From positions 9,684-73,683 of the forward strand of contig CAZJBW010000010.1 of assembly GCA_964543985.1 (NCBI GenBank): a DNA stretch of 64,000 bases, read 5' to 3'. The notes beneath the pieces were generated by a model. The model searched no databases. It had not been told where the DNA came from and was given only the letters and a program-made list of their open reading frames with translations. A program made the translations under genes and the position numbers. The DNA comes from an uncultured Pirellulaceae bacterium (lineage in GTDB: Bacteria > Planctomycetota > Planctomycetia > Pirellulales > Pirellulaceae). This document shows, in pieces, positions 5,713-38,670 of this stretch. Each line of letters starts with the position of its first letter. Positions within the stretch are counted from its first letter, which is position 1.

Positions 5713-6603
5713 ATGACAAAAACTTTCAACACTAAAATTGGCGACCGTGATATTCAATTACTGATAGCGATTGACCGTTGTCCATTAACTCCGTCACAGC
5801 TTTGCCACATCAGCAAAACGTTCGAGCGACCTTTCAATGACTCGCACAACGTCAGACGACGCCTTCGAAAACTCGCGGCGGCTGACCTGGTTCAATGCTT
5901 TCCATATACGATTACAGGCGACGGCTATTCTCATCGCTACTACAAACTGACACGCTGCGGGTATCGGTTGCTTTACGGGCCCAAGGTCACACTTCCGAAA
6001 CGAAGATACTTTGAAGCCATCAAACCCGGTCACCATCACCATACGTTTTGCCTTGCCGAGACGATCGTTCACCTTTGCGTGACCGCCCACGAAAACGGTT
6101 GTGAGATCATCTACTTTTCACGTGAGAACAGCGTCAAGCTACAGGCCGATCCATTTACGCTTTACCCAGATTCCGCTTTCGTCGTTAGAAGAAGTGACGG
6201 ACGCACGTTTTCTTTTGTTGTTGAACTGGACAACGGAACTGAACGTGTCAGGTCAAAGCAGGATGTCGAATCAATTGAACGCAAGCTCCGTGGATACGAC
6301 GCCCATCAATCGAAGTACGACAAATTCGATCCAGATCGTTATTTGGTTCTATTTATCACGACTCGCAGCGAGAATCGCCTGCAATACATCATGGACGTCG
6401 CGGCAGACATCATGAAACAACCAAACCGCCGCGTGTTCGTTGGAGCTGAGCTGAATCGACTATTGTCAGTTGATCCGTTTCAAGTTCCCATCTTCGTCGA
6501 TCATCGCGGCTTGAAACGCCAGATGGTTTCAACAGTAGAAACTGACTCAGGTATCAAGACGATGAAGAATCACACCAACCTTTTACGACCGCTGGCGGTT
6601 TAA
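5713..6603 (+). CDS. replication-relaxation family protein (copy 1)
   Basis: N-terminal wHTH pattern DRDIQLLIAIDRCPLTPSQLCHI....VRRRLRKLAAADLV. Later HH.H cluster and PDSAFVV...FVVELDNGTE...LVLFITT, as in Replic_Relax-type proteins. Confidence 0.65.
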   Translation: MTKTFNTKIGDRDIQLLIAIDRCPLTPSQLCHISKTFERPFNDSHNVRRRLRKLAAADLVQCFPYTITGDGYSHRYYKLTRCGYRLLYGPKVTLPKRRYFEAIKPGHHHHTFCLAETIVHLCVTAHENGCEIIYFSRENSVKLQADPFTLYPDSAFVVRRSDGRTFSFVVELDNGTERVRSKQDVESIERKLRGYDAHQSKYDKFDPDRYLVLFITTRSENRLQYIMDVAADIMKQPNRRVFVGAELNRLLSVDPFQVPIFVDHRGLKRQMVSTVETDSGIKTMKNHTNLLRPLAV

Positions 6604-6752: not shown

Positions 6753-6801
6753 TCCAAATCGGACTTTACCATCCGCACCTTTGCCGTGCAAGGTTCGAAA
6801 T

Positions 6802-7083
6802 ATGGATAAAACGATCTATTCCGCTGAATACGCCGCTTTGCTTCGCGTATTGAAGCGAACCAGGGCCGGTTCCGGGATTACTCAAACCGAATTGGCCGAG
6901 CAGCTTGGCATGACGCAGTCGGCATACAGCAAGCTGGAACGGGGCGAGCTTCGAATTGACGTCATTCAATTGCGGATAATCGCAACTAAAATTGGCGTGT
7001 CGCTCGTAGACTTTGTTGGCGACCTGGAAACGGAAATTGGCAAACGCGAACCGCGACGACGAAAATCATCGCGCCGCAAGTAG
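6802..7083 (+). CDS. XRE-family HTH transcriptional regulator
   Basis: ITQTELAEQLGMTQSAYSKLERGELRIDVIQLRIIATKIGVSLVDF is a classic Cro/C1 HTH_3 pattern. The first ATG in the ORF is at 6802. Confidence 0.8.
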   Translation: MDKTIYSAEYAALLRVLKRTRAGSGITQTELAEQLGMTQSAYSKLERGELRIDVIQLRIIATKIGVSLVDFVGDLETEIGKREPRRRKSSRRK

Positions 7084-7915: not shown

Positions 7916-10048
7916 ATGTCCGAAGAGGGCGAGAAACTCCATTGGCAATCACTTCCAATGACCTTGCTTAAGTTTCATCCACCAGCAGACAACCAACGCG
8001 GCCCCAAGTTCCTGGAAAGCCTGATCGAAGGCTGGGTGTCATTGTGCGGCCAAGAGGGAATTCGGCTCGGCATCAACAGCAATCATGGACGAATCGTTTT
8101 TGTTGCCGACGTACCTGACAAACGGCAACGTGTTGTCGCGGCTCAGCTGGAAAACGCTTATCCAGGTGGGAAAAGCGAAGTGGTGCATTCGCGATCCAAA
8201 GCTGAACCGCCACATCAACACCGGTCGGTGGGTTGGCTTCGACTATCGCCCGATGTTTATCCGCTGAAGCTTCATCAATCATTCGTCGAAGAACATTCAC
8301 GAGATGCAATGGATCCACTTGAAGGCTTGTTGGAAATCATCAAGTCCGGTCAGTCGGGACGTGTTGGGACGACGCTTTGGCTGGAGCTGAAGCCCCTCAA
8401 GAAAAGGCAAGCTGATCGCGCCAAGCGTAATTCGCGTCTATTGAACGCAAGCTTCCCATTCAAAACGGTCGAGAACTCATTCGAGCGGAACTTTTCCGGC
8501 TCAACTTGGAACCAACGATTCCAACTCTGGCTGATCCGTCGAATTATTCGCTCTACCGCGTCAATTCCAGAACCGGTTGCCGCAAAGCTGGAGCAACATC
8601 TGTTTTCGGCTTTGGTAAGCGTCGAAGTCACCACCGACACACCCAATCCGAAACTCCATCAGCAACGACTTCACGATATCGAATCTGCACTTTGTCTTTT
8701 AACGGGCTTCTCAGCCGTTTTCTTTGTGGAGACCAGACCAAGGGGCAGCTTCCTGCTGACAACGCCTGAGATCGCAACTTTGTGGCATATTCCGACCATT
8801 GAAACCAAAGTCCCGCGACTCGAACGAAGCACGTTTAAAGAACTCGAACCGCCACCGAATTTGCCTCGCCCCGGAGACAGCCCGCACATCGTCACGCTTG
8901 GGCGCGTTTGCTTTCGCAACGAACGGTACAAATTCGGCATGGATCTCGAAGCCCGCCGCCGTCATTTGTACATCATCGGGAAAACCGGAATGGGTAAGTC
9001 GACGCTGCTGCAAAACATCATCGCCGATGACATCGCGGCCGGCAGGGGATTGGCGGTCATTGACCCGCACGGTGACCTGGCTGAAAACACGCTCAACTAC
9101 GTTCCCAAGTTCCGTAAGAACGACATCATCTACTTCGATCCCGCCGATCCGAACTCGATACCGTTCAATCCACTGATGGTTCCGCCCGGTTCAGACAAAA
9201 CGCTTGTCGCCGACGGCGTGCTTTCCGCATTCCAAAAAGTCTTCGGCATGGACGAGTCACAAGCCCCACGGCTGCTACACATTTTCCGCAACTGTTTGTT
9301 GTCGCTGGTCGAGATGCCATCCGCATCATTGATCGACGTTCAACGATTGCTGGTCGACGAGATGTTTCGCAAGTCGGTCATCGCCCGCGTCACGAACCCA
9401 GTCGTTCGCAGTTTCTGGCTTGACGAGTATAGCAAGTGGAAACCACACGACCGCACCGCGTTCATCGCATCGCTTCAAAACAAACTTGGCGCATTCCTGA
9501 CCAATCCAAAACTCCAATACATCCTGGGCGATCCCAAAGCCAAACTGAACCTGCGCAAAGTTATGGACGAAGGCAAAGTCCTGATCGTAAACCTGAGCAA
9601 AGGCCGAGTGGGGGAGAACGCATCCAACTTGCTTGGCGCGCTGATCGTTACATCGCTTCAACTCGCCGCCATGAGCCGTGCCAACATCCCCGAATCCGAC
9701 CGCCGCGACTTCTCAATCATCATCGACGAGTTCCAAAACTTCACCACGCCCTCAATCGCAACATTTTTGTCAGAGGCGCGAAAGTACCGAACGCATCTAA
9801 TTCTCGCTAACCAGTTCACCGAACAAATTCCACCAGAAATTCTCGGAGCAATTGTCGGCAATGTCGGTAATAAAGTAATGTTTCAGCTCGGTGCCACCGA
9901 TGCCGCCATGTTTGAAATATATTTCGCGCAAAATGTCCATTCAACGAATCTAATGGAATTGCCAAGATTTCATGCTTATTGTTCTTTGCAAACCAATTCC
10001 TCGGGATCGCAATTGTTTTCAGTAAAGACCCATCAAATTCAAAAATGA
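7916..10048 (+). CDS. VirD4/TraD/HerA-like P-loop ATPase (copy 1) with ~330-aa unknown N-terminal region
   Basis: Walker A YIIGKTGMGKSTLL and Walker B DFSIIIDEFQNF. AVIDPHGDLA and IPFNPL blocks are shared with the paralog at 30796..32538. Confidence 0.7.
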   Translation: MSEEGEKLHWQSLPMTLLKFHPPADNQRGPKFLESLIEGWVSLCGQEGIRLGINSNHGRIVFVADVPDKRQRVVAAQLENAYPGGKSEVVHSRSKAEPPHQHRSVGWLRLSPDVYPLKLHQSFVEEHSRDAMDPLEGLLEIIKSGQSGRVGTTLWLELKPLKKRQADRAKRNSRLLNASFPFKTVENSFERNFSGSTWNQRFQLWLIRRIIRSTASIPEPVAAKLEQHLFSALVSVEVTTDTPNPKLHQQRLHDIESALCLLTGFSAVFFVETRPRGSFLLTTPEIATLWHIPTIETKVPRLERSTFKELEPPPNLPRPGDSPHIVTLGRVCFRNERYKFGMDLEARRRHLYIIGKTGMGKSTLLQNIIADDIAAGRGLAVIDPHGDLAENTLNYVPKFRKNDIIYFDPADPNSIPFNPLMVPPGSDKTLVADGVLSAFQKVFGMDESQAPRLLHIFRNCLLSLVEMPSASLIDVQRLLVDEMFRKSVIARVTNPVVRSFWLDEYSKWKPHDRTAFIASLQNKLGAFLTNPKLQYILGDPKAKLNLRKVMDEGKVLIVNLSKGRVGENASNLLGALIVTSLQLAAMSRANIPESDRRDFSIIIDEFQNFTTPSIATFLSEARKYRTHLILANQFTEQIPPEILGAIVGNVGNKVMFQLGATDAAMFEIYFAQNVHSTNLMELPRFHAYCSLQTNSSGSQLFSVKTHQIQK

Positions 10049-10051
10049 ACA

Positions 10052-11554
10052 CTACATGAAATAGCGCAGAGAGGATTCAACTGGCGGTTCTTCTCCGAAC
10101 TCGTCAAGGATTCCCCCAACTCGTCGAGCAAATGACAAGGTGACTGGCCATTTCGCGCGAACGTCGGCCGTATTCCAATTCATCCTTGTTAAGTTAAGAA
10201 TATCTCTGACAGCTTCTTCCGGATGGTAGTCACCAAAACATCGAACCTCAAATGGCTGCGGTATGTGAGGTCCGGGATAAGTTCCAAGTGAAGGCATATA
10301 GCCTGACGTATACAGAAATGTTCGATCTGAGTTGACAGTGCAAATGGTCCCCACGTTGGGCGGATACGCTCCAAAGCGTAGCAGCCTAAACGAACTTGGA
10401 ATTAGGGTCACCATGCTTACAATTGGAATTCCCTTAAGAGCTTCCCTAAATCCCGCAATCTCAGCTTCATTGAATTCACTAGTTTTATGAATGATTAGCC
10501 GCAATGGTTCGCCGCCTGTTCGGCTACGGTATTCTTCAAGAACCATCGTACCCAGAAGCATTGCTTGTTGTTCTGTTAATTTAGTATCCCTACGTTGATG
10601 AGGGTCAGCCGGAACGCCTTCGCCACGAATTGCGAAACCTTCTCCCTCACTTGAGAAAGCTTGAGCTAAACTTGAATGAACAATATGCCTTTGGGTCGTC
10701 CTAAAGTGATGAAAACTAATTCCAACGAAGCAGGTTTCGAGCTGGCTAATTGGAAGACGCCACGGCACGCCTCCGGACTTATAGTAAAGGCCAACTGAAA
10801 AATTCCATGCGCGTGTTGCTGCATCCTGATTGTGCTTGGAATCCTCAGTCAATGAGGTTGTTACCAGTTGTATCGGAAGCCTCAAAGATAGGGCCCGAGC
10901 CTTTAGCGCGTGACGTAGGTCACGACGAATGAAATCTTCTTTTGTTTGTTCCACTTCCTCGGCAAGGTCAAAGAGTTCCAGCTGCCGCATTGAAAGTTGT
11001 TTTTCAATCTTTCGGACAGCCTTCTTTTCAGTTCTCGAAAATTGTCGATCAACGTTCCTAGCTTTGAGTGAGACGGACTTGGGCAGACACACCAATACGA
11101 CATCTGGGCGGTTCGTATCCCTCTTTGCCAAAGTTTCCAACGCATTCGCGTATAGATCAATGATTTCTTGAAATTTTGCGAATCGGTCTGGTTTAGTCAT
11201 TCGGTCAGCAAGTTCATCCAACTTACCGCCTGGCAGCAACACGGTACCATTCTCTCCAAATTCTAATGTCTTGTGAAACGCCCCCGGAAACGACGGGAAG
11301 CTTCGGTGAAGTAAGCTTGTGCTTCCGGAAAAAATGATCTTTTTTGAACATCTGATTAGCCAATTTTGAGCAAGTTTGACTTCATTTTCGGGCCCAATCA
11401 AACCAACAAAAATTGCATTTTTGCGAGCTGAGCCGAAGCGAAGATCGAAAGGGCCAGCGACTTCTAGCCCAATTTTCGGATCGGTTTGCTGTGTTGCTCC
11501 GCCAAACTGCAGACTTGGCTGTGGAAGCTCTTCGATAGATAGCTCAATTGTCAT
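10052..11554 (-). CDS. short prokaryotic Argonaute (MID-PIWI, predicted catalytically inactive)
   Basis: PIWI motif WNFSVGLYYKSGGVPWRL and MID-like LRHALKARALSLRLPIQLV. The slicer Asp positions read FVGISF and IIHKTSEF. About 500 aa with no PAZ. The likely start (MTIELS, ATG 11554) overlaps the upstream gene stop by 11 nt. Confidence 0.85.
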   Translation of the reverse strand: MTIELSIEELPQPSLQFGGATQQTDPKIGLEVAGPFDLRFGSARKNAIFVGLIGPENEVKLAQNWLIRCSKKIIFSGSTSLLHRSFPSFPGAFHKTLEFGENGTVLLPGGKLDELADRMTKPDRFAKFQEIIDLYANALETLAKRDTNRPDVVLVCLPKSVSLKARNVDRQFSRTEKKAVRKIEKQLSMRQLELFDLAEEVEQTKEDFIRRDLRHALKARALSLRLPIQLVTTSLTEDSKHNQDAATRAWNFSVGLYYKSGGVPWRLPISQLETCFVGISFHHFRTTQRHIVHSSLAQAFSSEGEGFAIRGEGVPADPHQRRDTKLTEQQAMLLGTMVLEEYRSRTGGEPLRLIIHKTSEFNEAEIAGFREALKGIPIVSMVTLIPSSFRLLRFGAYPPNVGTICTVNSDRTFLYTSGYMPSLGTYPGPHIPQPFEVRCFGDYHPEEAVRDILNLTRMNWNTADVRAKWPVTLSFARRVGGILDEFGEEPPVESSLRYFM

Positions 11555-14366
11555 AGGTGCTATCCTCGTCGTCTTCCAGATCTTCGTCCGATTGTTCAGC
11601 CAATTCGAAGAGCTCTTCTTCAAGATCGTCTAGATCGCCTTGCAAATCCTCAAGAATCTCCGAATCCAGGTTGAATGAGTTAGCTCCAAATGCAACCGTT
11701 GGAGGGCGATCCGACAAGAGAATTGTAGGCGCGAAACCAGCGGACGGATTGTCATCATCGCAACTCAGGGCAAAGACCCCAGTTGCTCCGCTCGCAATCA
11801 TTGAAATCCAAAACGTTACATCTTGGTGAACAGCCTGATTAAAGTCCTTGGCGGCTCGTCGCGTTGAAAGCACATTAATTCTTGCGCGCCCAATGGGCAT
11901 TCCAATTCCGTTACGCGTGAACGTGTAACCAGGTGACAACATAATTGCCCATTCATCTTGAAAATCCATGATGTTGAAGTTCAACGCTTTGTGTTCGTAG
12001 TAGACGACTTCATTTGAATCCTTCTTTGTTCTAGCTTTTACGACAGTACGGGTTGCAGTCCTTGAACGGCCCTTGTAAGTAATCTTGAACTCATTTTCAT
12101 CGGAAGGTTTGGGATAGTGGACTCGCTTTCGACCATAGTCAATCCAGAGTCCGATGGATCGAAGATGCTCAAACATCGCCTCGTTTAGCAACTTCACGAA
12201 AACATTGCGGCCATTGGGCTCCGCGAGTAGGTCGTTAAGAGCAATTTTCGAAATGCCGGATTTTGCGAATGGAAGTTCGACGGACCTAGACATTTCTTGA
12301 AGATTGAAAAGCGAATAGAAATAGCCGTTGGTTATATATCCTCTGGGGACGTTTTGATGATCGGCTTTCTCTTTTAAGCCTCGCATGGAGCGAAACTTTG
12401 TCCTGGCTACCCATACAAAGTCAGGAAGCCCCACAATGCTGAGCATATTGGCGGCAAAGCGATGTATTTCGGTTGATGCCGAAATTGCAGTATTGGTTAT
12501 TTCATCAACAACTTCTGGTCGCGCACGTACAACAACTGTAAAGTACTCATTATCGGAATCCGGGCCGAAATCGACTTCACCGTTGTTGTTAACTGTCTCT
12601 TTCCACATGTCAGACAAGCCGGATCCTTGCCTGTCCATTTGTCCGCCGCCATAAAACAAATCCGAGATCACCGGATTCCGGTAGCCTTTTACTCCACGTC
12701 GATTGTTCTTGATGAGAGTTTCTATAGGTTCGCCGCCAGTTTGCGCCGCAACTTCATCGACCAACCCGCCAGGGCTTATAACGGATACTGAATCTGGGGT
12801 AATGTTTACACGAATAGGTTCATCTTTTCGGTAGTCACGGTGAACTAATGCATTGACGAGCATTTCTTTCAAAGCAAGCGGGTTATACGCTTGGACTTGT
12901 TTCGACAATTCCGCTTTTAGCCGAAACGAAAAATTCACCAAAGAAAGCAAGTCGGTTAGCTCATCCAGTTGCGTCCAGAGGTTTCCCGTTATGTGACGCT
13001 CAACGACATGGTTTCCCGTTTCATCTTCTGGATTTAATTCTGTATCGTCTCCTAGCGTTTTCCTCAACCAATTGGAATGCCCAATAAGCGTTACTTGGAC
13101 TCTTGCATTGGGAACTGCAAATGTAGGATCCTTTCCGAACAACAAGATGCCGGCAAATGTAGGACTAGCGGACTCAGGTTGATTAGAGATTAAATGCAGC
13201 GAGCCTGCCGTTTCCAATACCCAAGTTTCATCAATGAGATTTGGTACCCAGATGTTTAATTTGTCTGCGTATTGCGCAAGCCTCGCCCGCAAAAGTGGAA
13301 TGTCCAAATCGCCAACGGAATTCGATTTACACGGTCGCATGTCCTCAGGAACGGCCAACTCATTCGAAAATGGCGGACGACGTCCCGGAGGTGTCTTGCT
13401 TGAAACCAGCAAGTTCAACAGATCAATCTCGAACAGCTCGTCGAATCCGCGAATGGAAACGGAGTTGAAATTGGAACCAATTGTATTTGCGAGACGTTGC
13501 ACGAGAGGCGAAAGGGAAACCTGATCCGGTTTGTCGCGCGTGCACCAATAAACGCCTTGCGCGAATTTGTTTGTAAACTTCAGATGGTTTTGGAAAATCC
13601 CATCCATGATCGAAGGTTCGTTTCCTCTATATCCAACAACAATGATTGGGCGATCTCGAAGCATCGTTTTCACCGCATCAACAAGAGCTTTATCTAGTTT
13701 TTGCACTTCGTCAGTAAGGTTTCTGTCTGTGTAATGCTCAACCGAACCGTGTAGGAAAACGAGTTGCGGGACTGATGGTGTTGCGCTGAACTGGATCAAA
13801 TCATCCGAAGTCTTGATTTTTACAATATGGTGTGGCTTGTTTTCCAGAGTCGCGGCTTTTTGAACACAGTTATCGAAATTGGTTGTAAGTACAGTTGAAA
13901 TCCAACCTTGATGCAGAATTTTTGCCAATGAGCGATATCCGCGGTTTGGAGGAATCGGCGGCGAAATCAGTCTTTCGAAAAAGTCCCGACGATCACGCTT
14001 TACTCCAAGTAGTTGGTCGATCGCAGTCGGGTACAAGTCCGCTAGGTTTAATGATGGATCGAACCATGGTTTTGCAGCCAACCAGGGCTTGTAGTCAGAC
14101 GGACGAACGGTGGGGTCGTCGAAATGACGACCATTTTCTTTGCACCAAGCCCATTTCGCCGCGCGTTCAACTGTCGCATTGGCGGCTGGAATACCAGAAG
14201 TGATTGAAGCGCCTGCACCGATCAACAAAACTGGGGTCGGGTCATCTTTTAGAAGAGAGCGTAATCGTCCTGCTTCGGCGTGTCGTAGTTCTTTCAGTGT
14301 TTTTCTCGCTTCAAACGATCGCACGGATAAGACCTGCATTTTATGACTAGTATTCCTCGCAGGCAA
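11544..14366 (-). CDS. SIR2-domain protein fused to a Schlafen(AlbA_2)/HATPase_c_4-like module and a C-terminal (putative APAZ) region with an acidic tail
   Basis: SIR2 motifs: LLIGAGASITSGIP, VLTTNFDN, FLHGSVEH. Middle module: ILLFGKDP, LVNALVHRDYRKDEPIRVNITPDSVSVISPGGL, YRNPVISDLF, DRQGSGLSDM. Tail: DLDDLEEELFELAEQSDEDLEDDED. APAZ is inferred only from position next to a short pAgo. Confidence 0.8.
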   Translation of the reverse strand: MPARNTSHKMQVLSVRSFEARKTLKELRHAEAGRLRSLLKDDPTPVLLIGAGASITSGIPAANATVERAAKWAWCKENGRHFDDPTVRPSDYKPWLAAKPWFDPSLNLADLYPTAIDQLLGVKRDRRDFFERLISPPIPPNRGYRSLAKILHQGWISTVLTTNFDNCVQKAATLENKPHHIVKIKTSDDLIQFSATPSVPQLVFLHGSVEHYTDRNLTDEVQKLDKALVDAVKTMLRDRPIIVVGYRGNEPSIMDGIFQNHLKFTNKFAQGVYWCTRDKPDQVSLSPLVQRLANTIGSNFNSVSIRGFDELFEIDLLNLLVSSKTPPGRRPPFSNELAVPEDMRPCKSNSVGDLDIPLLRARLAQYADKLNIWVPNLIDETWVLETAGSLHLISNQPESASPTFAGILLFGKDPTFAVPNARVQVTLIGHSNWLRKTLGDDTELNPEDETGNHVVERHITGNLWTQLDELTDLLSLVNFSFRLKAELSKQVQAYNPLALKEMLVNALVHRDYRKDEPIRVNITPDSVSVISPGGLVDEVAAQTGGEPIETLIKNNRRGVKGYRNPVISDLFYGGGQMDRQGSGLSDMWKETVNNNGEVDFGPDSDNEYFTVVVRARPEVVDEITNTAISASTEIHRFAANMLSIVGLPDFVWVARTKFRSMRGLKEKADHQNVPRGYITNGYFYSLFNLQEMSRSVELPFAKSGISKIALNDLLAEPNGRNVFVKLLNEAMFEHLRSIGLWIDYGRKRVHYPKPSDENEFKITYKGRSRTATRTVVKARTKKDSNEVVYYEHKALNFNIMDFQDEWAIMLSPGYTFTRNGIGMPIGRARINVLSTRRAAKDFNQAVHQDVTFWISMIASGATGVFALSCDDDNPSAGFAPTILLSDRPPTVAFGANSFNLDSEILEDLQGDLDDLEEELFELAEQSDEDLEDDEDSTYDN

Positions 14367-14438: not shown

Positions 14439-15914
14439 TCATCGACTTGCCAATTTTGCATTTGATTGTTTACATGTTCGCAAACTGCTCGCGTTGTTTT
14501 GCTCGGGGGATTGTGCAGAGAAAATTCTTTTTGGTGAGAAAAGCAAATTCGAGTTTATCTGTTCTTGAATATGAACTCTCGCATTACCGCGAGAAGTGAA
14601 CTTTTCGGACACATAAATACAGACGAACCCGAACTGCTCATTCCGAGCAAACATGTATGCGGCCCATACGTTTTCTTTCTTGAAGTAAAGGACGGTTCCA
14701 AAGAACGAAGATGTGTCGTCACAAAACCACCCTTGTTCTTCGCTATCGGGAACGACGCATTCACCTGGCACGAAAAAATCGAAATGCTCCTTGTCAATTG
14801 GCGACACGCCGATTGAAACCATTGGCGGGTATTTCTTGATAAAGTCCTTCAACTCAGAACCAAAATTCATCGTGAGCGTTTTCGACACATACGGATGCCA
14901 AGGCACAAGCGAATCGTATTCGACAGCAACATGCCCATTATCGGCCAAATATGACTGAATCGCGTAGTGGAAAAAGTCGTGGGGAACTGGGTTCAGCGCA
15001 TTCGGGTTGTGCATCACAGTGAGACCTTGCCCCCATGATTCAACAAACGGTGGGCATTCCATATTGTAGGCAAACAGCGACGGATCCTTGGCATTCTCAA
15101 GGGGAGTGTAGCATTCACCCCGACGATATACTGAAACTTGATCATTTCCAAAGCCATGCTGAAAACCCATACGCGTGAACTTTCCAGACGTCCCGCTGTT
15201 CGTGAAAATAACGGCACTGATGTACTCTGATTCTGGCTGAACAAAGAAACCTGATGGGATCACCTTTTCTGCCACAGAGTGCGATTCCACTTCATTGGTA
15301 GAAACAACAAGTTCCGCATTCTCATTCCATTGCGCCGTACTTTTACTGCCATACAAGTAACCCATCAATGCCCCGTCCGAAACGGAAAGCGAGTCTTCAT
15401 CGTGAAATGCTTGGATGGCGATAACAAGAGGGATGTTTTTGCAGTGTTCGTGCTCCCAATATTTCTTCTTGAGCTTCGAGAACAAAGGACTGCCAAATCG
15501 GATCGGAAGTTCTTCCGTCACATAGTGCAAAAGCTCCGCCTCATCGAGGTCGCCAATTTTCCGGCCTTTTTCTTTCAAGACACCAGAAGTTGGAGGATTG
15601 ACAGTGGTCGCTTCTACGGCGACTGTTCGCCCATTTCGAGAAATCAAAAAATCCGGCTTGTCATGATCGCGGTTCAGTTGGAATCCCGATCGAGAGAAAT
15701 AGGCGAACAAGTACAGTTCAAAAAACCTCGCGTCGAATCCAGTTGTTTGAAATTGTTCGAGAAAATTCCCATCAGGATCAACAAAGTCTTGGTAAATATT
15801 CTCGAGCATCTCGCGTGAGCAGATAGCACCCGGCTGATCCTTTAGCTGGAGAAAACTGGGATGAAGTTTGGATTCTTCTACGACAGGTTCGAAAAGCTTG
15901 TTTTTTGCCATCAT
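14439..15914 (-). CDS. hypothetical protein, possible PD-(D/E)XK-like nuclease fold; first gene of the pAgo operon
   Basis: Co-directional, 72 bp upstream of the SIR2 gene. The segment FFELYLFAYF...DKPDFLISRNGRTVAVEATTV resembles an E...D...ExK-type core, but the K is not evident. Start taken at MMAKNKLF (15914). Confidence 0.5.
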   Translation of the reverse strand: MMAKNKLFEPVVEESKLHPSFLQLKDQPGAICSREMLENIYQDFVDPDGNFLEQFQTTGFDARFFELYLFAYFSRSGFQLNRDHDKPDFLISRNGRTVAVEATTVNPPTSGVLKEKGRKIGDLDEAELLHYVTEELPIRFGSPLFSKLKKKYWEHEHCKNIPLVIAIQAFHDEDSLSVSDGALMGYLYGSKSTAQWNENAELVVSTNEVESHSVAEKVIPSGFFVQPESEYISAVIFTNSGTSGKFTRMGFQHGFGNDQVSVYRRGECYTPLENAKDPSLFAYNMECPPFVESWGQGLTVMHNPNALNPVPHDFFHYAIQSYLADNGHVAVEYDSLVPWHPYVSKTLTMNFGSELKDFIKKYPPMVSIGVSPIDKEHFDFFVPGECVVPDSEEQGWFCDDTSSFFGTVLYFKKENVWAAYMFARNEQFGFVCIYVSEKFTSRGNARVHIQEQINSNLLFSPKRIFSAQSPEQNNASSLRTCKQSNAKLASR

Positions 15915-16061
15915 GTTCTCAAGTACATGGAATGTGATCTTGATTGACTCTAAAAATAGAAAATAGTTCGGCCCAATCATAGCCAAGTCGCATTTCGCGA
16001 TAGATTACGAAAGAAAAACCCAGTTAGAAACTGGGTTGGGTTCCTTCCCATTGTGCCCTCG

Positions 16062-16868: not shown

Positions 16869-17480
16869 TCACCGGTATTCGCGGATGCTGATACCCTTGT
16901 CTTTGCCAAGCACAATGTGGTCAAGGACGTCGATGCCGATTGTTTTACCGACATCGGTCAGCCGGTCGGTGACCGCGATATCTTCGCGTGATGGTGTCGG
17001 ATCGCCGGACGGATGGTTGTGGACAAGAATGACCGACGACGCGGCGTCTTTGATGGCCTTTCGAAAGACCTCGCGAGGGTGAACCAATGATGCGTCAAGT
17101 GTGCCAACCGTAATCTGATGGGAAGCGATGACTTGGTTTTTTGTATCTAGCGTGACCGTATGAAACTCTTCTTGAAGGCAGTCTGATACCAAGCGAGAGA
17201 AGTGTCGGCGGCAATAGTCAATGGCGTCAGAGCTGCTGGAGATCTTGATGATGGCACGAAAAGCAGTTTTCGATTCCTGAATGCGACGCCCAATCTCGAT
17301 GCTCGCCTGAAGCCGTTCATAGGCTTTGGGAGTCAGGTTTAGTTCCTGACGATGCGCCTGATCAAGTTTTTCCAGCGGAATCTCTTTCAATATCTGCTCT
17401 GCCCGGTCAGAAGAGCGTAGTAATAGTTCAAGTAGTTCTTGATTCGACCTTTGATGGAATTCTCGTGGCTGTTTCGGCAT
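16869..17480 (-). CDS. radC: RadC-like JAB-domain protein
   Basis: JAMM motif ILVHNHPSGDPTPSREDIAVTDRL and a typical RadC length (203 aa). Confidence 0.85.
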   Translation of the reverse strand: MPKQPREFHQRSNQELLELLLRSSDRAEQILKEIPLEKLDQAHRQELNLTPKAYERLQASIEIGRRIQESKTAFRAIIKISSSSDAIDYCRRHFSRLVSDCLQEEFHTVTLDTKNQVIASHQITVGTLDASLVHPREVFRKAIKDAASSVILVHNHPSGDPTPSREDIAVTDRLTDVGKTIGIDVLDHIVLGKDKGISIREYR

Positions 17481-38582: not shown

Positions 38583-38596
38583 GCTTGTTCAAAAAG

Positions 38597-38670
38597 CACA
38601 CCCGGGAGGATTCGAACCTCCAACCCTCGGTTCCGAAGACCGATGCTCTATCCAGTTGAGCTACGGGTGC
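38597..38670 (-). tRNA. tRNA-Arg (anticodon UCG)
   Basis: Minus-strand sequence GCACCCG-TA-GCTC-AACTGGATA-GAGC-A-TCGGT-CTTCGGA-ACCGA-GGGTT-GGAGG-TTCGAAT-CCTCC-CGGGTGT-G folds as a cloverleaf. The anticodon loop is CU-UCG-GA. CCA is not encoded. The first acceptor pair is G1.U72. Confidence 0.9.

Follow-up and report, generated by a model that had tools for sequence, protein, structure and literature searches.

Several described systems pair a short prokaryotic Argonaute (pAgo) with an effector joined to an APAZ domain. In SPARSA, of clade S1 (S1A/S1B; GsSir2-APAZ/Ago; Protein Data Bank (PDB) entries 8in8, 8jl0 and 8y80), SIR2 and APAZ share one chain of about 585 residues. In SPARDA and SPARHA, both of clade S2B (9qbl/9qbq/9qcc, 9jsb and 9om4), a nuclease effector (DREN or HNH) is joined directly to APAZ, and in SPARTA, of clade S2A, the effector is a TIR domain with NADase output. 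Two related groups are built differently. RzAgo, an SLFN-pAgo with a "Schlatpase" supradomain (AlbA_2 plus GHKL), is a long-B pAgo in which one chain also holds the effector, a Schlafen tRNase. The stand-alone COG2865 proteins (Schlafen-ATPases such as DIP2311, 3lmm) begin with AlbA_2 and in many cases end with a helix-turn-helix (HTH) domain. Here we analyse a two-gene locus on a 64,000-nucleotide stretch of DNA from an uncultured Pirellulaceae bacterium (contig CAZJBW010000010.1, positions 9,684 to 73,683 of the forward strand; hereafter the window), in which the partner of a short pAgo reads SIR2, GHKL ATPase module, APAZ and acidic C-terminal tail.

The locus is very probably an intact two-gene short-Argonaute defence operon of the S2B type. 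Within a family that is already catalogued, it is an intact and unremarkable member, and it represents no new kind of system. A preliminary description, made from the sequence alone, had assigned the block between SIR2 and the presumed APAZ to a Schlafen(AlbA_2)/HATPase_c_4 module. Of that assignment, HATPase_c_4 was borne out and AlbA_2 was not: the insert is a COG2865-derived middle subdomain followed by a GHKL ATPase, and derives from a Schlatpase without being a complete one itself.

The Locus Belongs to a Catalogued Short-Argonaute Family

Two models of PADLOC-DB v2, which dates from 2023, span the SIR2 partner. PDLC02402 (Aga_SIR2-PNTD1-PNTD2) aligns residues 32-934 with model positions 2-873 of 876 (1253 bits), and PDLC02418 (Aga_SIR2-Kinase-PNTD1-PNTD2) aligns residues 171-935 with positions 1-755 of 756 (1083 bits). 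The protein has the length class, the domain order and the short-pAgo operon of the PDLC02402 family; with no architectural difference between them, it is a member. A literature search on the origin of the names "PNTD1", "PNTD2" and "Kinase" turned up nothing relevant. A third model, PDLC02394, is a pAgo model that matches residues 379-537 of the SIR2 partner and probably represents the RzAgo/SLFN-pAgo group.

The same architecture recurs among relatives. A word-indexed search returned 556 relatives of the SIR2 partner, and the best 120 of these, which were examined, are all 850-956 residues long. A scan of one genome per species yielded 41 loci. In 39 of them a short pAgo lies directly downstream (tblastn with the window pAgo), and the other two stop at a contig edge. 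Judged by the best 120 homologues and these 39 loci, the arrangement is the standard form of a large short-pAgo clade, and its proposed novelty falls away. The preliminary description had known of no characterised system of this kind, which holds for experiment and fails for architecture: PADLOC models the protein end to end, and no experimental study of a SIR2-GHKL/HATPase-APAZ protein was found in the searchable literature, which leaves most subscription-journal papers outside its reach.

Pfam describes HATPase_c_4, the ATPase domain of the insert, as "RecG". Guo et al. mention "RecG/DHS-like" partners, Koopal et al. (2022) report S2B operons with "DHS-like-APAZ", and Prostova et al. (2023) refer to a "subgroup of SIR2 effectors" in S2B. 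Group og_40 of Ryazansky 2018, the DHS-like-APAZ proteins of Koopal 2022 and the SIR2 subgroup of Prostova 2023 appear, as matched by description only, to be the same as the present family or closely related to it. The table of Ryazansky 2018 contains a short pAgo of Rhodopirellula maiorica (WP_008706031.1, 500 residues, "short, RK-putative"), presumably the 74%-identical pAgo of locus L001. Kuzmenko et al. (2026; bioRxiv 10.64898/2026.05.29.728809) selected SLFN-APAZ proteins of short pAgos with PF04326, a filter that the SIR2-GHKL-APAZ family would fail.

The reading frame of the SIR2 partner is uninterrupted and gives 940 residues when counted from TTG 14366, the length that had been proposed. 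Alternative starts lie at ATG 14339 (931 residues) and GTG 14324 (926 residues). The GTG start fits, because a database protein that is 100% identical to the 940-residue product (P0001) is annotated at 926 residues. Up to 14 residues at the N-terminus are thus in doubt, which leaves every domain unaffected. A pair of sigma-70-like hexamers (14366-14338) overlaps the TTG; scanning the region for promoters and terminators gave fewer promoter-like sites than occur in shuffled sequences (4 vs 7.6), and we take from the scan a possible downstream start codon and nothing more. At its other end the gene closes with ...TAT GAC AAT TGA, the TGA occupying 11546-11544. The pAgo ATG at 11551 falls within this end (ATGACAATTGA, 11551..11544), such that the two genes overlap by 8 nt, stop codon included. 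An overlap of this kind is typical of translational coupling and indicates it here.

Compared with PDB pAgos, the window pAgo is closest to SPARHA (2e-63), followed by SPARDA (1e-46) and SPARTA (2e-37), and is least similar to SPARSA (2e-19). This ranking, which is one of similarity and not a tree, points to clade S2B. Short pAgos are all stated to lack DEDX, the catalytic tetrad of PIWI (Koopal 2022). The length of the partner separates it from SPARSA as well. Canonical SIR2-APAZ proteins had been put at about 550-600 residues, in agreement with PDB chains of 584-587; the protein here is about 350 residues longer and lacks their short SIR2-APAZ linker. SPARSA partners have neither the GHKL insert nor the acidic tail.

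The Insert Combines a Middle Subdomain and a GHKL Core and Lacks AlbA_2

The insert comprises 287 residues (338-624). SIR2_2 and HATPase_c_4 were the sole matches of the whole protein in a Pfam scan at E<=0.1, with HATPase_c_4 (PF13749) placed at residues 516-612 (E=5e-8; 33.3 bits vs a gathering cut-off of 26). Conserved GHKL elements include an N-box (E501/N505), SPGG (531-534), YRNP (562-565) and GSG (581-583). A HMMER scan with residues 330-640 over 1.84 billion cluster representatives produced 1337 relatives, the distant ones being stand-alone proteins of 400-590 residues. In these, Pfam places SLFN_AlbA_2 at ~11-146 (PF04326, 1e-10 to 1e-17) and HATPase_c_4 at ~305-410, and alignment with the query starts no earlier than their residue ~150. 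Profile-profile alignment (hhalign) of the 60-member family with 11 stand-alone proteins gave a single match (probability 99.8, E=1.9e-30), which pairs residues 338-624 of the query with 153-401 of the template and leaves template residues 1-146 unaligned. A COG2865-derived block thus does sit between SIR2 and APAZ, as had been proposed.

Structure prediction placed the insert in the same group. A full-length AlphaFold2 model (mean predicted local distance difference test score (pLDDT) 76) had Foldseek matches to structures of SPARSA, SPARDA, SPARHA and SPARTA and to 3lmm. As SIR2 and APAZ matches dominated this search, the insert was modelled separately (residues 335-622; pLDDT 83, predicted template modelling score 0.83). 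Its best match, with E=1e-9 and TMq 0.58, was DIP2311 (3lmm), aligned across ~290 columns, and the next were histidine-kinase CA domains (4kp4, 9epn, 7zp0, 4cb0 and others; E 4e-4 to 1e-2).

Homology to COG2865/Schlafen-ATPase proteins, and the annotation "predicted HTH transcriptional regulator" that some relatives bear in some sources, would suit the module first proposed, a nucleic-acid-binding Schlafen(AlbA_2)/HATPase_c_4 unit providing a second sensing layer or a second nuclease activity. Several observations speak against it. PF04326 was absent from the query at the Pfam threshold and from the Pfam annotation precomputed for the best 120 homologues. The profile-profile match begins past the AlbA_2 domain of the stand-alone proteins, and in the multiple alignment the query likewise enters directly past that domain, at VPEDMRPC...DLD, such that the stand-alone ExxRxExK and ICAFAND motifs have no counterpart in it. 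These two correspond to motifs defined for RzAgo, E(x)4(D/E)xK of the nuclease and the Schlafen box "SAFAN" (Kuzmenko et al. 2026). Schlafen structures were absent among the 50 Foldseek matches listed for the insert model. Finally, the last helix of SIR2 ends at ~322 and the homologous block begins at residue 338; the ~15 residues in between leave no room for an AlbA_2 domain of ~120 residues. We reject the AlbA_2/Schlafen label for the insert; the corresponding explanation is largely refuted already and we consider it very unlikely.

The motif AGILLFGKDP...ITGNLWTQLDEL, quoted in support of AlbA_2, is a genuine hallmark of COG2865. However, it is located in the middle subdomain before the Bergerat fold, outside AlbA_2. 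What the protein holds is the post-AlbA_2 subdomain and the GHKL core, not the tandem of AlbA_2 and GHKL that makes a complete Schlatpase. SIR2 takes the position of the Schlafen nuclease of Schlatpase proteins, and APAZ takes that of the C-terminal HTH. RzAgo offers a parallel. It too has a middle subdomain and a PF13749 GHKL domain, flanked by an effector on the N-terminal side and by a region like the Argonaute N-lobe on the other, with the E-x-x-x-N motif kept; the present system differs in being split, in having a short pAgo and in having SIR2 in place of Schlafen. An added regulatory layer had been anticipated, and an extra module is indeed present, in the form of an ATPase rather than a nucleic-acid-binding Schlafen domain. 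Correcting the "Schlafen" label of such SIR2-GHKL-APAZ proteins has a consequence for function: with the nuclease domain absent, a second nuclease or tRNase activity is not expected.

Relative to stand-alone Schlafen-ATPases, the family has two conserved insertions of its own. The first, at residues ~428-443 of the middle subdomain (nt ~13038-13085), carries the motif NWLRK..GDD with invariant G429, W433 and G439. The second, at residues ~548-559 (nt ~12690-12725), makes the ATP-lid region ~12 residues longer and precedes the invariant K560-G561.

The ATP Site Is Conserved More Strictly than the SIR2 Catalytic Histidine

Among close family members (49-62% identity), E501, N505, H509-R510, S531-P532-G533-G534, K560-G561, R563-N564-P565 and G581-S582-G583 are invariant. 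In the wider family, represented by 55 cluster representatives at 28-50% identity, E501, N505, H509, G533, R563, N564, G581 and G583 remain so. These GHKL residues are invariant even in members that have lost the SIR2 histidine, and are thus stricter than that catalytic residue. By the E-x-x-x-N motif, E501 and N505 correspond to E314 and N318 of RzAgo, which coordinate the gamma-phosphate and Mg2+ of ATP (Kuzmenko et al. 2026). The ATP site of the GHKL module is therefore under strong constraint.

This conservation bears on the idea that the GHKL-like block is a degenerate spacer or scaffold that binds no nucleotide, in a system that works like canonical SPARSA or SPARDA. The classical G1 aspartate is missing in HATPase_c_4, the Pfam score is modest (33 bits) and pLDDT falls below 50 at residues 482-490 and 578-580, parts of the ATP-lid region, all of which would be in keeping with degeneration. 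Invariance of E501, N505 and the glycine boxes across 55 divergent representatives would not, nor would the functional role of the same residues in RzAgo, and we judge a spacer unlikely.

A conserved ATP site would equally serve an effector or metabolic sensor, by which the GHKL module depletes ATP or gates activation on the ATP level or on a nucleotide second messenger. Some relatives also add a PNP_UDP_1 domain to the same chassis. GHKL turnover rates are generally low, which counts against such a role. RzAgo does hydrolyse ATP; however, its hydrolysis-dead E314A variant still binds ATP and oligomerises (Kuzmenko et al. 2026), which points to a switch. An effector or sensor function of the module thus also seems improbable to us. 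In RzAgo, ATP binding via the PF13749 domain drives tetramerisation, mainly through the GHKL domain (Kuzmenko et al. 2026). By analogy, that the GHKL module of the present family acts as an ATP switch is a real possibility, although one we would not yet call probable.

SIR2, APAZ and the Acidic Tail

The N-terminal domain was verified as SIR2 by the Pfam SIR2_2 match (residues 158-280, E=1.9e-12) and by phmmer alignment of residues 49-292 to GsSir2-APAZ structures of SPARSA (8jkz, 8jl0 and 8in8). N163 and H206 fall on N142 and H186 of GsSir2, both of which are required for NAD+ hydrolysis (PMC11452484), and 60 family members share N163, D165 and H206 without exception. With its catalytic residues intact and invariant in the family, the SIR2 domain looks competent. 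An NCBIfam scan returned sub-threshold deacetylase fragments only and was uninformative.

The presumed APAZ was confirmed by three methods. PADLOC REase/TIR-PNTD1-PNTD2 models match residues ~622-871 (Aga_REase-PNTD1-PNTD2, 7e-28). In phmmer, HNH-APAZ of SPARHA (9om4_A) aligns to residues 636-931 and the DREN-APAZ chains of SPARDA (9qbl, 9qbq, 9qbp and 9jsb) to residues 640-890. Foldseek matched the domain to SPARDA, SPARHA and SPARTA (E 1e-13 to 1e-9). As with the pAgo, the closest APAZ domains are those of SPARDA and SPARHA, which also share a negatively charged C-tail; unlike in those systems, SIR2 and then a GHKL ATPase stand before APAZ in place of the nuclease.

The tail is as acidic and DNA-mimic-like as had been noted, with 21 Asp/Glu and no Lys, Arg or His in the last 48 residues vs 13% Asp plus Glu in the whole protein. 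AlphaFold2 predicts an amphipathic helix at residues 899-924, with the motif DLxxL(D/E)xELxxLA. A comparable tail occurs in 60 of 60 close homologues (41-66 residues, 14-30 acidic and 0-6 basic), which have the amphipathic motif in common, and the tail here can be aligned with that of SPARHA HNH-APAZ, also acidic. It is not a new feature: autoinhibition by such a tail has been described for SPARTA and SPARDA. DREN-APAZ of XauSPARDA holds its negatively charged C-tail in a positively charged groove until the target strand displaces it. The SPARTA tail, a nucleic-acid mimic, is autoinhibitory, and the guide-target duplex drives it out (Guo et al.); beyond this tail and the NADase output, SPARTA differs in its TIR effector, its clade and its lack of a GHKL module. 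As the acidic tail is absent from SPARSA (Guo et al.), the tail found here fits the S2-type affinity of APAZ.

Distribution and Effector Variants of the Family

The 41 loci are mainly from Alphaproteobacteria (Bradyrhizobium, Mesorhizobium, Rhizobium, Sphingomonadales, Acetobacteraceae and Enhydrobacter), with others in Planctomycetes, a Binataceae metagenome-assembled genome (MAG) and an enterobacterial MAG. The closest named relative is the planctomycete Rhodopirellula maiorica, at 60% identity. At 50% identity the SIR2-GHKL-APAZ subgroup falls into dozens of clusters.

Enhydrobacter aerosaccus ATCC 27094 (L023), whose genome represents the species, encodes a SIR2-GHKL-APAZ and short pAgo operon, and 9qbp is a SPARDA structure from this species. 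Enhydrobacter aerosaccus may thus carry two S2B-type systems.

Several relatives that match PDLC02402 over its full length have a further N-terminal region before SIR2. These regions are a PNP_UDP_1 phosphorylase superfamily domain in P0139 (1221 residues), a trypsin-like peptidase in P0176 (1096 residues), a calcineurin-like phosphoesterase (metallophosphoesterase) in P0147 (1267 residues) and a region similar to PDC-M54A in P0189 (1111 residues). The PNP_UDP_1 domain of relatives is also matched by the PADLOC "PN-superfamily" effector model. In the locus of P0139 (L042:4001-8617) the short pAgo lies directly downstream and is 42% identical over the 306 residues present.

SIR2 catalytic residues appear to be lost in some of these proteins. 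Tyr stands at H206 in P0139 and P0140 (the N-terminal extension of the latter had no Pfam match), Phe at H206 in P0176 and Leu at N163 in P0147; these losses were read from columns of a 55-sequence MAFFT alignment, for which a structural check is advisable. P0139, P0140, P0176 and P0147 retain every GHKL ATP-site residue. The pattern suggests that GHKL-APAZ is a constant chassis with an exchangeable effector: some relatives carry an apparently inactivated SIR2, preceded by an additional N-terminal effector (PNP_UDP_1, trypsin-like protease or metallophosphoesterase).

Genomic Neighbourhood

The genes flanking the operon suggest a defence island carried by an integrative or mobilisable element (Table 1). 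The PD-T7-1-like gene had no Pfam or NCBIfam match. This gene and the TraD/HerA-like ATPase were considered as components of the system and rejected, as neither adjoins the operon in the 41 related loci. Since both neighbours are missing there, the system is a two-gene unit.

Table 1. Positions in the window of the operon, its domains and the neighbouring genes
Feature	Coordinates	Strand	Residues	Basis or remark
SIR2-(middle subdomain)-GHKL-APAZ-acidic tail gene	11544..14366	minus	940	open reading frame list; PADLOC PDLC02402; identical P0001
SIR2 (DHS-like) NADase-type domain	13401..14285	minus	~28-322	Pfam SIR2_2; phmmer to 8jkz/8in8; AlphaFold2 secondary-structure elements 28-322
Middle subdomain with AGILLFGK motif	12882..13355	minus	338-495	hhalign; alignment; Foldseek to 3lmm
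GHKL (Bergerat-fold) ATPase core, HATPase_c_4 type	12519..12881	minus	496-616	Pfam PF13749; Foldseek; conservation
APAZ (PNTD1-PNTD2; N-L1-L2-like), S2B type	11691..12452	minus	~639-892	PADLOC; phmmer; Foldseek
Acidic C-terminal tail	11547..11690	minus	893-940	composition; conservation; AlphaFold2 helix
Short pAgo (MID-PIWI)	10052..11551	minus	499	PADLOC pAgo_I, E=4e-141
Replic_Relax protein	5713..6603			
XRE-type HTH protein	6781..7083			
TraD/VirD4/HerA-like ATPase	7916..10048		710	convergent with pAgo, ends 3 nt from pAgo stop; also PADLOC mad8, 2.7e-20
PD-T7-1-like defence gene	14439..15986	minus	515	72 nt upstream of SIR2 partner; PADLOC PD-T7-1 E=3.9e-125, PD-T7-5 2e-47
RadC JAB-domain protein	16869..17480			
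tRNA-Arg, anticodon TCG	38596-38670	minus		only tRNA gene within the window

Proposed Mechanism

From the domain composition, the absence of AlbA_2, the conserved catalytic and ATP-site residues and the operon linkage, we infer a series of biochemical steps by analogy with the described systems. APAZ and the MID-PIWI short pAgo would form a guide/target channel. At rest the acidic tail would fill this channel, by analogy with SPARTA and SPARDA. Once an RNA guide pairs with invader DNA, the complex would expel the tail and oligomerise. Oligomerisation would bring the SIR2 domains together and align the SIR2 catalytic loop, as in SPARSA, and so lead to NAD+ hydrolysis, NAD+ depletion and abortive infection. 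In SPARSA, NADase activity needs SIR2 tetramerisation (PMC11452484). The GHKL module would bind ATP and offer a surface for ATP-dependent dimerisation or tetramerisation, which would license or stabilise the SIR2 assembly in its active state, by analogy with RzAgo, for which alone ATP-driven tetramerisation has been shown.

We regard the overall reading as reasonably probable, namely that the locus encodes an S2B-type abortive-infection system in which the SIR2 NADase, GHKL module, APAZ and acidic tail act as modelled. Several points weigh against it. HATPase_c_4 modules have SPGG in place of DxGxG and thus no canonical G1-box aspartate, such that ATP binding is deduced from the RzAgo homologue alone. 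The two family-specific insertions could alter function. A wider-family subgroup of ~835-856 residues has no acidic tail (3-9 Asp/Glu in the last 40 residues vs 12-22 in most others); autoinhibition by the tail is therefore not universal and may be clade-specific. The S2B-type relatives SPARDA and SPARHA activate via filaments, not tetramers, and the clade itself is assigned by similarity ranking. Biochemical or genetic data for the SIR2-GHKL-APAZ family were not found in the searched literature.

More tentatively, the GHKL module may switch on oligomerisation in dependence on ATP and serve as a chassis that is reused to join Argonaute sensors to exchangeable effectors, with SIR2 standing in the place of the Schlafen nuclease and NADase output needing both target DNA and ATP. 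If this proposal is true, the S2B SIR2 system would be the first short-pAgo system whose NADase output requires both.

Implications for the Family

The value of the locus lies in the group to which it points, a large and widespread short-pAgo subgroup, mainly of Alphaproteobacteria and Planctomycetes, with a conserved GHKL ATP site between SIR2 and APAZ. This family offers a direct test of whether ATP-gated assembly is a general control of Argonaute-linked effectors, and of whether NADase and nuclease effectors are interchangeable on one scaffold.

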